Source: Chamaesiphon sp. (GTDB taxonomy: Bacteria > Cyanobacteriota > Cyanobacteriia > Cyanobacteriales > Chamaesiphonaceae). Taken from it: DNA of 64,000 bases. Below are positions 35,874 through 40,171 of the stretch, piece by piece. A program made the translations under genes and the position numbers. Position 1 is the first letter of the stretch. The number at the start of each line of letters is the position of its first letter. The stretch spans positions 1-64,000 of the forward strand of contig CBDFFH010000015.1 of NCBI GenBank assembly GCA_965246715.1, given 5' to 3'. The notes under the pieces were generated by a model. It saw only the letters and a list, made by a program, of their open reading frames with translations. It did not search any database and had not been told where the DNA came from.

Positions 35874-36158
35874 ATGGCCGACCCCATCACCCCCGCAATT
35901 AGCGATCGTATCTGTAAGCATATGAACGACGATCATGCTGAAGCAGTTCTCACCTATGCTAAGGTCTATGGTAAATCTCCCACCGCCGAAACAGCAGCCA
36001 TGAGCGCGATCGATCCGCTCGGGATGGATTTGACTGCTAGCATCGCTGGTGAAACAGTCAATCTGAGAATACCATTCGATCGGGAGCTGACGGATTCTGA
36101 AGATGCCCACCAAACTCTGATCGGCATGATTAAGGAAGCTAGAAAAATGGCTGGTTAG
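35874..36158 (+). CDS. DUF2470 domain protein
   Basis: SDRICKHMNDDH, IDPLGMDL, RIPFD. Confidence 0.9.
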   Translation: MADPITPAISDRICKHMNDDHAEAVLTYAKVYGKSPTAETAAMSAIDPLGMDLTASIAGETVNLRIPFDRELTDSEDAHQTLIGMIKEARKMAG

Positions 36159-36982
36159 TTATAGAACCCATTTGAGATCTTCTAGTGGTGAGGGTGGGTT
36201 TGTTCGATATCGAACAGTAAATTCGATGTTGGCTAGCATAAACCCACCCCTACAGATCCATAAATTCGGATATCATACATTTTACAGATCGACCGTAGAT
36301 ACTGTCTTGAATGTCAAGGGGTGGCGAGCGAATAATTAGGGTCAAAGGGCTGTTGAGACTTTAAAATGCCAAAAGCCAAATGGACTAATTTACGCATGAT
36401 GGCACCAATCGCCTGCATTTTAGCCTTGCCACGATCGAGTAATCGTTCGCTGAAAGTTTTGAGCAGAGGATTATGACGCATCGAGACTACCGCAGGCATA
36501 TAAAGAGCTTTGCGGAGTCGAGAATTACCAGTACAAGACAACCGAGTTTTGCCATGAACGCTGGTGCCACTAGAGCGCTCAGATGGAGTTAAACCCGCAT
36601 GGGCAGCTAATTGACGAGCATTCTGGTAATCTTCGATCCGACCGATTTCTGCCAACAAGACAGCCGCAGTCTGTGCGCCAATTCCAGGAATTGAGACCAA
36701 CAGATCTCGCTGTTGTTTTAACTCTGGATGTTTGTCGAAATGGTCGCTAATTAATTGTTTAATTAGGGCTTGCTGTTCCTGGAGATAGGTCAGATGAGAT
36801 TGAGTGAGTTCAGCTACTTTGGTGGTGGCTGTTTCCAAGCGATTGTGTTCGGCTGTGACCATTTCCTGAAGAGAATCTAATCGCCGGACCAGGGCTTGTA
36901 GTTCTTTGATTTCAGGGGCTGTTGGTTTCCACAGTTCTGGTTTAATTGCTGCACAAAAACGGGCAATCAATGCTGCATCAAC

Positions 36983-38550
36983 GTAGAAGTTCAGGGGGTA
37001 GTAAAAAGCAGAGAAATCTGATAGGGTAGGGCACATGGAAAAGACAGTGCCAGAACTAATAGCGGCAATCAGCCCAGAAGAGTGGGCACAAGTACCAGTA
37101 AGCGTCCTGAAGCTAATCGAAGAATTAGTGCGCTGGATGGATCGTATTGAGCAAGAAGTGGCAGCATTGCAAATAGAAAATGAGTTGCTCAAAGAACAAC
37201 TAGCCAGAACATCAGCAAATTCATCACAACCACCATCAAAGAATCCTCAAGGGTTTAAACCAAATCGAAAAGAACCGACGGGTCAAAAGCGCGGTGGGCA
37301 AATCGGACATATCGGACACGAGCGAAAACTGTATCCACTAGAAATGTGTCAAGAAGTAATCGACTACTACCCACCGCAATGTGGGAAGTGTGGAGGGTCC
37401 GTTAATGACAGTTTGCGGACTCAAATATATCGACATCAAGTAGTTGAAGTCCTACCAGTACAACCAATTGTTATCGAGCATCGATTTCATCAGATGACCT
37501 GCACTTGTTGTGGGGCAGAAAATCAAGCACCAGAAATGTCTGAAATTATTGGTAAAGGTGGATATGGCGCAAGAGTAGCAGCTTACGTGGGTTTGTTTAG
37601 TAGTCAGTACCGACAATCCTATCGGCAGATCCAAAACATCATGCTGGCGGTGTTTGGGATTGAGATGTCATTAGGTACGATTAATAACCTGCGCACAGAA
37701 GTAAGTGAAGCTGTTAGTGCTGCGGTGACGCAGGCACAAGGTTACGTTCAGCAACAGCCAACAGTAGGAGTGGATGAGACTGGCTTCAAGCAACGCAATG
37801 GAGATGGTCAAAACGCCGCCAAGACTAGTGGCTGGCTATGGGTAGCCGTAACGCCATTGGTCATTTGTTTTCAGGTGATTCTCAGTAGAGCTAGTACTGC
37901 TGCTCAAACTGTTTTGGGTTCAGCTTTTGCCGGATTTATCACCAGTGACCGTTGCCCTGCTTATAACTGGGTGGATGTGGCGAACAGACAACTCTGCTGG
38001 GCACATCTCAAGCGAGACTTCATTCAAATTTCGGAACGAGTAGGAGCCTCCGCTGAGATTGGTGAATCTCTATTAGCTCAAGAAAAGCTCCTGTTCAATC
38101 TGTGGCATCAATTTAGAAATGACCAACTCACTCGCATAGAGTTAGCACAAGCGGTTGAACCAATTCAAGCTCAATTTTCCACCATTTTGATGGAAGCAGC
38201 CGAATTCCAGATTGGTGAACATGAAAAGACCCCACTAGCTAAAACTGTGCGGACGTGCCGTAATCTGTTGAAGCTGTTCGATTCTTTCTGGCTATTTGTG
38301 CGTGAAGAAGGAGTAGAGCCGACTAATAATGCGGCGGAAAGAGCCATTCGTCCGGCTGTAATTTGGCGGCGGACTAGCTTTGGCTCGGATTCTGTTGCTG
38401 GCAGCGAGTTTGTGTCTCGTTTGCTCACTGTTGTCTCTTCCCTTCAGTTGCAAGAGCGCAATATTCTTGATTTTTTGGTTGAATCTATCTCTGCTGCTCG
38501 TTCTGGTACAGTTCCACCTTCTCTTCTGCCTTAGCCCTGTGAACTTCTAC
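36983..38550 (+). mobile_element. IS66-family element, single-ORF type (1568 bp)
   Basis: TIR GTAGAAGTTCA / TGAACTTCTAC; 8-bp duplication GCATCAAC at 36975-36982 and 38551-38558. Confidence 0.95.
37035..38534 (+). CDS. IS66-family transposase
   Basis: NSSQPPS, GGQIGH, CxxC zinc finger, VDETG, QLCWAHLKR, PTNNAAERAIR. Confidence 0.95.
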   Translation: MEKTVPELIAAISPEEWAQVPVSVLKLIEELVRWMDRIEQEVAALQIENELLKEQLARTSANSSQPPSKNPQGFKPNRKEPTGQKRGGQIGHIGHERKLYPLEMCQEVIDYYPPQCGKCGGSVNDSLRTQIYRHQVVEVLPVQPIVIEHRFHQMTCTCCGAENQAPEMSEIIGKGGYGARVAAYVGLFSSQYRQSYRQIQNIMLAVFGIEMSLGTINNLRTEVSEAVSAAVTQAQGYVQQQPTVGVDETGFKQRNGDGQNAAKTSGWLWVAVTPLVICFQVILSRASTAAQTVLGSAFAGFITSDRCPAYNWVDVANRQLCWAHLKRDFIQISERVGASAEIGESLLAQEKLLFNLWHQFRNDQLTRIELAQAVEPIQAQFSTILMEAAEFQIGEHEKTPLAKTVRTCRNLLKLFDSFWLFVREEGVEPTNNAAERAIRPAVIWRRTSFGSDSVAGSEFVSRLLTVVSSLQLQERNILDFLVESISAARSGTVPPSLLP

Positions 38551-38869
38551 GCATCAACTGAATCAGTTTTCGTCCGTAATAGTTCGCCCTTGGCAAACCC
38601 TTGAATTCGGGCTGGATTGACGACACTAACGGCAAAGCTGGCTGAGTAGAGGAATTCGGCTAAAGCGTCTCCATAGATGCTGGTCGCTTCCAGACAGGCG
38701 TGCATTTGGTCGATCCCTTTTTGTTTGAGCCACTGCTGCAAACTCTCAAACCCTTGCAGATCGTTGGTGAATTTTTTGGATTTTGTTCTCGTCTCTCCCA
38801 TGATTAGTACTACATGAAAGTCTTTTTTGCTGATGTCTATCCCTAAAAAATTAACTGTCATTAACTGCT

Positions 38870-39220
38870 TACTCCACTCCTAACTATGCTCAAAGAACTT
38901 GACAGACTGTTTAACTAACCTTGTGATTGCAGGCTTTTCGGTAAATCGATTGCCTAAGATACTGTCCAGCTTTAGGTGTGTCTGTCATCAGTTGTGGGAG
39001 CTTATCTACGCAGCAGACTAACAATGTTGTCTAAGGGGCGGGCCAGCTTCACCGATTACTGATGTCCTCACTCTCACTTTCTCGCATCTGGCGATCGCGC
39101 TCTGAAACTGTTATGGTTTCTTTACGCCGATCGATTTATTCCTCTGACTCCCTTGGTTTGTGTCGATCTCTTTGAACTACGTTTGTTCTAAGCATTGTCT
39201 ATATCGATCGATTACCTACC
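38870..39220 (-). ncRNA. Predicted IS110 bridge RNA (ends approximate)
   Basis: Target guides CCCGCCCCT (39042-39034) and CGTAG (39010-39006) and donor guides ACAGTATCT (38965-38957) and ACAAG (38924-38920) match the flanks and the element ends, in the IS621 order. Confidence 0.85.
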
Positions 39221-39373
39221 TCTCTTTAAGATACAAGGGGCGGGTTTATGCTAGAAATTCTTGCTTAAGACAGTCATCTATCGATCGAACCCGCCCGTCC
39301 CAGCAATATCTGTTAGATCGCTCAATTGCCGCGACAGTAAATCATCCATAAATTCAGCAATACGAAAAATCCC

Positions 39374-40171
39374 TCAATGCCGATCGAACAGCGCTACATC
39401 TCGATCGTAACTAAGATCGTTAGTATCTAATAACCGATCCCAGAATGTAAAATATAGCCCGTAATGTCGCCGATAACGATGGTGATGGATCGAGTGGTGT
39501 GCTGGGCCGATAAACCACTTACCCAGCCAGTGGTGAGGAAATGATGGGGACAATAGATTGAGACCCAGGTGATTGACTACCGCCCAGACTGTCATCGTCA
39601 TCAGTATGGCAATCGCGGTAATAAAGTGCAACGGGATGACAAAGACGATCGCGATCAGAAACAGTGACTGAACCAGTGCTTCCGGCGGATCGAAAGCAAA
39701 AGATGTCCAGGGAGTCGGTGCGATCGAGCGATGGTGCCCCTGATGAAACCACTTGAATAATTTGGGATGATGAAACAAGCGATGGATAAAATAAAAATAT
39801 GTGTCTTGGAGGATTAAAACTAAGGCATAACTTACGCCTAAATACCAAATTCCATAAGCATGAATATCGCTATATAAACTGGTAATACCACGATCGTAAG
39901 CAGACACGATCGTCGCCGCAGACAGGGCAAAAACCACAGCAGAGCAGAGTGAGAGCCGAATATCGTGCCAAATTGCCTTGTTTGATGGTGGCTCGATGCG
40001 CACCGCTCGCTGGGACAAAAAATTACCACCAGCCGAGTAGAAGTATAGGTGCAAACCACCTGCGATTGTAAAATATCGCGCGAGGATAATGCCGAGAAAA
40101 GCTAATCCGTAAAATATAAATCTATGCCACGCAAATAAATAGTCGATAAATTCCATTTCTGTCGATCGCAT
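39374..40171 (-). CDS. Sterol desaturase / fatty-acid hydroxylase family protein
   Basis: His boxes HRLFH, HQGHH, NHLG, HHSIHH; YFTFWDRL. Confidence 0.9.
   Translation of the reverse strand: MRSTEMEFIDYLFAWHRFIFYGLAFLGIILARYFTIAGGLHLYFYSAGGNFLSQRAVRIEPPSNKAIWHDIRLSLCSAVVFALSAATIVSAYDRGITSLYSDIHAYGIWYLGVSYALVLILQDTYFYFIHRLFHHPKLFKWFHQGHHRSIAPTPWTSFAFDPPEALVQSLFLIAIVFVIPLHFITAIAILMTMTVWAVVNHLGLNLLSPSFPHHWLGKWFIGPAHHSIHHHRYRRHYGLYFTFWDRLLDTNDLSYDRDVALFDRH

Follow-up and report, generated by a model that had tools for sequence, protein, structure and literature searches.

The window, i.e. the whole 64,000-nt stretch of a Chamaesiphon sp. contig that was analysed, contains an IS110 element with a long non-coding left end. 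An earlier note had read in this end a bridge RNA with four guides that match the element's own target and donor, and had suspected extra 5′ structure in front of them. The locus thus raises two questions, namely whether the left end is the source of an RNA that selects the insertion site, and what the long stretch ahead of the guides represents. Our analyses make it highly probable that the element is an IS621-type IS110, the left end of which encodes a two-loop bridge RNA that guides the recombinase to put the circular form into a cyanobacterial REP-like repeat. The anatomy, the five CT-core copies, the recombinase gene, the complementarity, and the covariation were read from the sequence, and the steps of the mechanism were transferred from IS621.

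The genome (G000) contains five copies of the element (one each in C5, C14, and C34, and two in C15), which have identical ends and differing flanks, so that the ends of the copy in the window are set independently by the four further copies. All five copies have a CT core, a 374-nt left end, and a 15-nt right end. The left CT core is located at 39236–39237 (minus strand), exactly where the five copies diverge. It is followed by the left non-coding end (38862–39235, minus strand), which was defined by copy comparison and the homolog survey and starts with the right donor half TGTAT. The long non-coding end described in the earlier note is therefore present, and its length from the core to the ATG (39235–38862) is 374 nt instead of 375 bp. 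At the other side, sequence and copy comparison revealed a right non-coding end at 36299–36313 (minus strand), finishing in the left donor half ACAGTAT, and the right CT core with the right target half ACGGT at 36292–36298 (minus strand). This layout, in which both ends have a short core, terminal inverted repeats are lacking, and a long left end is combined with a short right end, is that of the IS110 group. The IS1111 group was also considered and was rejected, as the right end has only 15 nt and the guides are in the left end; IS1111 elements are described as having the RNA in a long right end and subterminal inverted repeats of 7–17 bp.

The element is flanked by convergent genes for a DUF2470 protein (35874–36158, plus strand) and a fatty acid hydroxylase family protein (39374–40171, minus strand). 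The nearest named relatives are in one Cyanobacteriota MAG and two Chamaesiphon MAGs, with 89–93% identity in the best segment. A metagenome scan yielded 15 loci and no close full-length relatives, and an Rfam scan of 38800–39400 yielded no match at E values up to 1. The joint of right end to left end that is expected for a circle was absent from the contigs of 4 of the 24 runs, in which the element itself is present; contigs drop rare forms. One RNA run (X24) yielded only four contigs, with depths of 2–4 and mostly of relatives, a yield that does not indicate transcription.

The four intact copies are each 1,365 bp long with both CT cores counted, and encode a protein of 323 aa. The copy in the window is 1,576 bases longer, and its recombinase gene is split by an IS66-family element of 1,568 bp (36983–38550, plus strand; identified by sequence, domains, and copy comparison) with terminal inverted repeats, an 8-bp target duplication, and an ORF for a 499-aa transposase (37035–38534). 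The N-terminal part of the IS110 recombinase is encoded at 38551–38861 (minus strand) and contains the DEDD RuvC-like domain with D9, E58, D100, and D103 (PF01548, E value 1.3e-18). The C-terminal part at 36314–36982 (minus strand) contains S239 (PF02371, E value 1.7e-29), and its stop codon overlaps a −35 box, TTGACA, at 36317–36312. The intact DEDD/Ser protein, found in four of the five copies, contains both Pfam domains and matches NF033542 with 244 bits (cut-off 140). Its residues 3–317 align with IS621 (E value 1.2e-75), and D9, E58, D100, D103, S239, Y262, M263, and V266 correspond to the catalytic and wedge residues of IS621. The protein also aligns with ISCro4, which we take to be another name of IS622. 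Rebuilding the transposase without IS66, as had been proposed, is unneeded because four intact copies exist in the same genome, among them C5:190403–191371.

Guides for target and donor can be read in the left end. On the minus strand, the flank CCCGCCCCT at 39244–39236 is identical to 39042–39034, CGTAG is present at 39010–39006, ACAGTATCT at 38965–38957 is identical to 36305–36297, and ACAAG is present at 38924–38920. All six stretches named in the earlier note are thus found at their positions, and the coordinates confirm its order of left target, right target, left donor, and right donor guide (LTG/RTG/LDG/RDG), as in IS621. The left target guide (39034–39042) and the left donor guide (38957–38965) are backed by sequence, shuffles, and homologs, with covariation in the homologs for the former, and the right donor guide ACAAG (38920–38924) by sequence. 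AT at 38927–38926 might extend the latter to seven pairs over a 1-nt bulge. The right target guide had been proposed to be CGTAG; the 4-nt GTAG (39006–39009; sequence and homologs) is reliable, but the fifth pair, which C39010 contributes at some sites, is found in only three of the five copies and 18 of the 33 homolog guide sets. The two handshake dinucleotides (minus strand) have the same letters as in IS621 and are complementary to the non-cognate DNA, i.e. AU at 39004–39005 (IS621 A81/U82) to T7 and A6 of the donor, and G of GU at 38918–38919 (IS621 G166/U167) to C7 of the target. The donor, which had been likened to the IS621 motif, is identical to the IS621 donor in 14 of 14 letters (Durrant et al., Supplementary Table 2). 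In IS621 numbering, all eight conserved A/G residues of the loops are at the IS621 distance from the guides (A39049, G39044, A39019, G39014, A38972, G38967, A38935, and G38930).

The rejoined ends, i.e. the computed circle junction, read TTGACA, 17 nt, and TATCTT, a predicted promoter. The predicted −10 box TATCTT (39228–39233, minus strand; spacing tallied across homologs) is paired with the −35 box in the circle junction only. In the linear left end, scans for promoters and terminators found neither, and no sigma-70 site was present in 38800–39420.

Matches as short as these could be due to chance, or could be passive remnants in an element whose protein alone picks the site. For the chance test, 20,000 dinucleotide shuffles of 39222–38862 were used. 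One shuffle contained the target 9-mer and 60 contained the donor 9-mer; none contained both, and none had all four guides in order. The two 5-mers are singly at chance level (7,680 and 12,255 of the 20,000 shuffles) and, being so frequent, carry weight through their position alone.

Searches of the genome, the order, and the class led to 74 protein matches that were examined. Thirteen were dropped due to the lack of a motif-defined guide or left end, 10 more were duplicates, and 51 distinct insertions were kept. One of these (L035) was left out of the right-target-guide tally and tree and of the core-to-guide spacing tally. Outside the core, the 30 distinct left target guides agree with the flanks at 175 of 210 positions. 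Permuted guides gave a mean of 74.2 and a maximum of 110, and 0 of 100,000 permutations reached the observed value; these and the following permutation counts overstate the significance because the homologs are kin. Four of the 30 guide–flank pairs are poor, with 1 to 3 of 7 positions matching (L056, L048, L042, and L035), and the value for L035 is a mis-extraction owing to an insertion. For the right target guide, position 10 is matched in 31 and position 11 in all 33 guide sets; both are matched in 31, a value reached by 0 of 100,000 permutations, and in five of the seven sets that have a non-AC guide or site. Position 12 is matched in just 18 sets. The left donor guide agrees with the donor in 29 of 29 sets, including four variants, although this conservation is partly built in because the ends were located by donor motifs. 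Target–guide covariation, proposed as a check in the earlier note, is thus found for the left target guides and for positions 10 and 11 of the right target guide.

The predicted target-binding loop module is located at 38986–39064 and the predicted donor-binding loop module at 38902–38985 (both minus strand; folding and comparative folding). The expectation that the guides lie in two internal loops was supported by comparative folding but not by single-sequence folding, which was no better than shuffles (z-scores of 0.26 and −0.33). The mean unpaired probability of the left target guide was 0.65 in the short fold and 0.27 in the fold of the whole left end, and the target guides were partly paired. 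For the comparative fold, 15 of 40 distinct sequences were picked from the nearest clades. In the consensus fold, both target guides and the right donor guide are unpaired, and the left donor guide has a 3-bp helix over its first bases. This helix was swapped by hand for a 4-bp stem closing the donor loop before the pairs were counted. In the edited fold, 94% of 398 cells are paired, and 20 of the 27 pairs have changed on both sides. None of 500 shuffles reached the observed value, and slid controls gave 47.7% at most, a comparison that favours the fold because the structure was derived from the same alignment. Support for the predicted two-loop fold therefore comes from compensatory changes, and single-sequence folding gives none.

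Taken together, these results make a site choice by the protein alone, with guide-like matches that are chance or remnants, extremely improbable. It would be compatible with the chance-level frequency of the two short guides and with the unremarkable single-sequence folds, but both 9-mers never occurred together in the shuffles, the compensatory stems speak against it, and the covariation over 30 guides largely refutes it. In addition, programmability has been published for IS621 (Durrant et al. 2024, PMC11208160). The left end is thus likely to be the source of a bridge RNA.

Some individual insertions had additional features. Two close copies in one genome (L057 and L061) differ at guide position 6; the flank of L061 follows its own guide at 7 of 7 positions, and the flank of L057 agrees with its own guide at position 6 and has a wobble at position 3. 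L080 and L083, from two genomes that belong to different families, have ACTCTC in place of ACAAG as right donor guide, which mismatches the donor; the transposase frame is open in L080 and contains a stop in L083. In L085, the left end apparently has the opposite orientation to the transposase and is truncated inside the target loop.

The target turned out to be one of the arms of a dispersed inverted repeat that ends in GTAG, a point absent from the earlier note. The left target half CCCGCCC (39238–39244, minus strand; sequence and copy comparison) belongs to a host REP-like arm. The inverted arm of the host repeat unit, GGGCGGGTT, is complementary to the left target and located upstream at 39288–39296 (minus strand), and a second inverted repeat arm, CCCACCCCTAC (36243–36253, plus strand), is unoccupied and has one mismatch to the guide; both were identified from the sequence. 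Four of the five copies are inserted in AAACCCGCCC-CT-AC. The C14 copy is in CCCACCC-CT-AC of another repeat, with a G:T wobble at position 4 and a mismatch at position 12. Copies with the same guides at unrelated sites would have spoken against guiding; the copies showed four exact targets and one with the position-4 wobble. Also as proposed, the target CCCGCCC-CT-AC is unlike ATCAGGC-CT-AC of IS621. The genome contains 5 exact and 8 wobble sites that are vacant, and the occupancies of exact (4 of 9) and wobble sites (1 of 9) do not differ significantly (p = 0.29). Paired-arm units number 46 in the genome and 20 in the reversed genome. Two repeat arms flank a Y1 transposase gene at one locus (L093), and its RAYT-like protein has a score of 77.1 bits, just below the NF047646 cut-off of 80. 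GTAG REPs have been described in cyanobacteria (Di Nocera et al. 2013, PMC3733652).

A short-ended insertion of another clade (L043) carries an identical CCCGCCCCT guide and targets the same repeat, which suggests that targeting has converged. At C34:103863, 450 bp from the RAYT-like gene, a repeat arm precedes a short stretch that resembles an element end but has no element after it, and C39:58900–59090 is a remnant that fuses leader-like letters to C-terminal codons of the transposase.

The upstream arm could indicate that target choice needs a hairpin of the target DNA with GGGCGGGTT besides guide pairing, as in ISPpu10, in whose targets the left target is reported to have its complement on the 5′ side (10.64898/2026.03.19.712850). 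Of the 12 insertions of the clade, 9 have a complementary upstream arm no more than 60 nt away. However, three have no match in the scanned stretch, the C14 copy included (L001 is at a contig end), and the arm is about 40–45 nt off, compared to a 4-nt loop in ISPpu10. Moreover, an arm is expected under either view, and its presence is uninformative because it belongs to the host repeat. A requirement for such a hairpin thus appears quite unlikely, and target choice by guide pairing with the REP-like arm is the preferred reading.

The second question concerns the 5′ leader of about 160 nt (39065–39223, minus strand), which comparison of homolog leaders characterized as clade-specific and variable, with the conserved proximal motifs TAAAGAAAC and AGAAAGTG. 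The distance from the core to the left target guide is 151–247 nt in 12 of 50 insertions (193 nt in the element studied here), compared to 46–89 nt in the other 38; it is 336 nt in one insertion outside this count (L082). The long-leader insertions form one clade (FastTree support 0.981), all have CCCGCCC-like guides, and their proteins are 65–100% identical to P0001, whereas the sister pair of the clade has short ends and other targets. The profile of the leader matches just the five copies in the genome.

Based on this distribution, the long leader might be functional within the same bridge mechanism. Its proximal motifs might be an internal promoter, a processing signal, a protein-binding site, or a hairpin that substitutes for the 5′ stem-loop of IS621, and might thereby control the RNA supply. 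We regard this as unlikely, albeit with an appreciable residual chance. Apart from the restriction to one clade, it would be consistent with the proximal motifs TAAAGAAA and AGAAAG, which are kept while the surrounding spacing shifts, and with a GAAAC-N7-GTTTY palindrome that was read in 6 of 10 distinct leaders. In contrast, the leader part of an 8-sequence alignment contains no consensus pairs, and the fold z-scores of the eight leaders range from +0.29 to −2.2 (−0.98 for the family of this element). Small hairpins occur ahead of the target loop in single folds, but the alignment of the long-leader clade has no consensus 5′ hairpin. A degenerate second loop was searched for in 12 leaders with nhmmer and yielded no hit at E values up to 10, the leaders share no small ORF, and the sigma-70 scan mentioned above was negative. 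The core-to-guide distance varies from 151 to 336 nt, and 4 of 13 leaders contain tandem repeats of 18–23 nt, which the leader of this element lacks. The proposal of extra 5′ structure is therefore unsupported, because there is no conserved fold, the length is variable, and tandem repeats are frequent. Most likely, the extra leader is a tolerated spacer between the promoter and the loops, which fits the dispensability of the 5′ stem-loop of IS622, whose loops are reported to function without it. A specific evolutionary version of a functional leader has a comparably small probability. The cyanobacterial clade, all members of which are directed to one REP-like repeat, would have gained a 5′ extension of 100–290 nt, in which the conserved proximal motifs are a control module absent from IS621, i.e. 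an internal promoter, a processing site, or a site for a host factor, and tandem repeats let the distal part grow without constraint.

The IS621 mechanism can be transferred to the element as follows. Weak read-through transcription would supply some of the enzyme and RNA. Excision would yield a circle, the joined ends of which would make the TTGACA-17-TATCTT promoter. Base pairing would join the target loop to CCCGCCC-CT-AC, and the donor loop to ACAGTAT-CT-TG. A tetramer of the recombinase would cleave beside the CT core via S239, forming phosphoserine links, and the handshake pairs would favour strand exchange. The copy in the window cannot produce a full enzyme of its own; it could be mobilised in trans by the enzyme of another copy, because its RNA and ends are intact.

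The genome also contains a second IS621-like family with 56% protein identity and four copies, at C15:206108, C22:94054, C43:136547, and C47:100227 (L033, L036, L035, and L037, respectively). It has the same donor, except that G replaces T within the right donor half of two copies. Its guides point to ATTGCCC-CT-AC, which is an arm of a different GTAG repeat, and 76 exact sites are vacant. Cross-mobilisation between the two families is possible because the donor is shared. The C43 copy contains a 220-bp insertion between the target and donor loops. A 110-bp miniature at C54:20247–20138 has both ends of the second family and contains neither loops nor a transposase, and is a candidate non-autonomous element. 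Finally, C41:88626–88455 and C22:145071–145243 contain left ends that are 95% identical and have full bridge loops; in both, the transposase breaks off at the same point, about 20 codons in.

The closest well-characterized system is IS621, an E. coli element that targets REPs and tolerates G:T at target position 4. The IS621 recombinase (Durrant et al. 2024, PMC11208160; Hiraizumi et al. 2024, PMC11208158) is about 43% identical to that of the present element, and both have DEDD plus Ser. Further shared features are the CT core, the identical 14-nt donor, the guide order, the AU and GU handshakes, the A/G residues of the loops, the layout of the predicted junction promoter, a REP-type target ending in CTAC, and the tolerance of G:T at position 4. 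The element differs in its target (CCCGCCC-CT-AC versus ATCAGGC-CT-AC), its 15-nt right end, and its cyanobacterial host, and it is known from sequence alone. In addition, the IS621 loop starts at nt 34, whereas a leader of about 160 nt precedes the target loop here. ISCro4/IS622 has been tested in human cells and has a different target (Perry et al., 10.1101/2025.05.14.653916; PDB 9t56). ISPpu10 (10.64898/2026.03.19.712850) is likewise an IS110 with REP insertion, a CT core, and an upstream sequence complementary to the left target. Its compact target hairpin, with a stem of about 5 bp and a 4-nt loop, was tested, whereas the arms found here are about 45 nt apart and were read from the sequence. 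The GTAG-tagged REPs and RAYTs (PMC3733652) share GTAG-ended inverted arms in a cyanobacterium and arms that flank a Y1 gene.

Natural retargeting is the published norm and was the basis of the discovery of bridge RNAs (PMC11208160); Durrant et al. used 5,511 target–RNA pairs, and their predictions gave bridge RNAs for 85.7% of the catalogued IS110s. Their target list already has a site with AAACCCGCCCCTAC, paired with a different RNA. Four strings of the element and one of the second family gave no match in the searchable part of their supplements, and may be present in the full dataset. No paper on this element was found in the literature searched, with ISfinder and bioRxiv supplements outside the scope, and a search of titles found no description of bridge recombinase systems in cyanobacterial hosts. 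The element is thus unexceptional among the RNA-guided IS110 bridge elements already known, the mechanism of which is published. With its several copies, readable guides, and the IS621 donor, this cyanobacterial bridge recombinase is a candidate tool for such hosts. Compared with IS621, it also illustrates that IS621-like lineages with one donor parasitise different REP-like repeats, and two such lineages are present in this genome.
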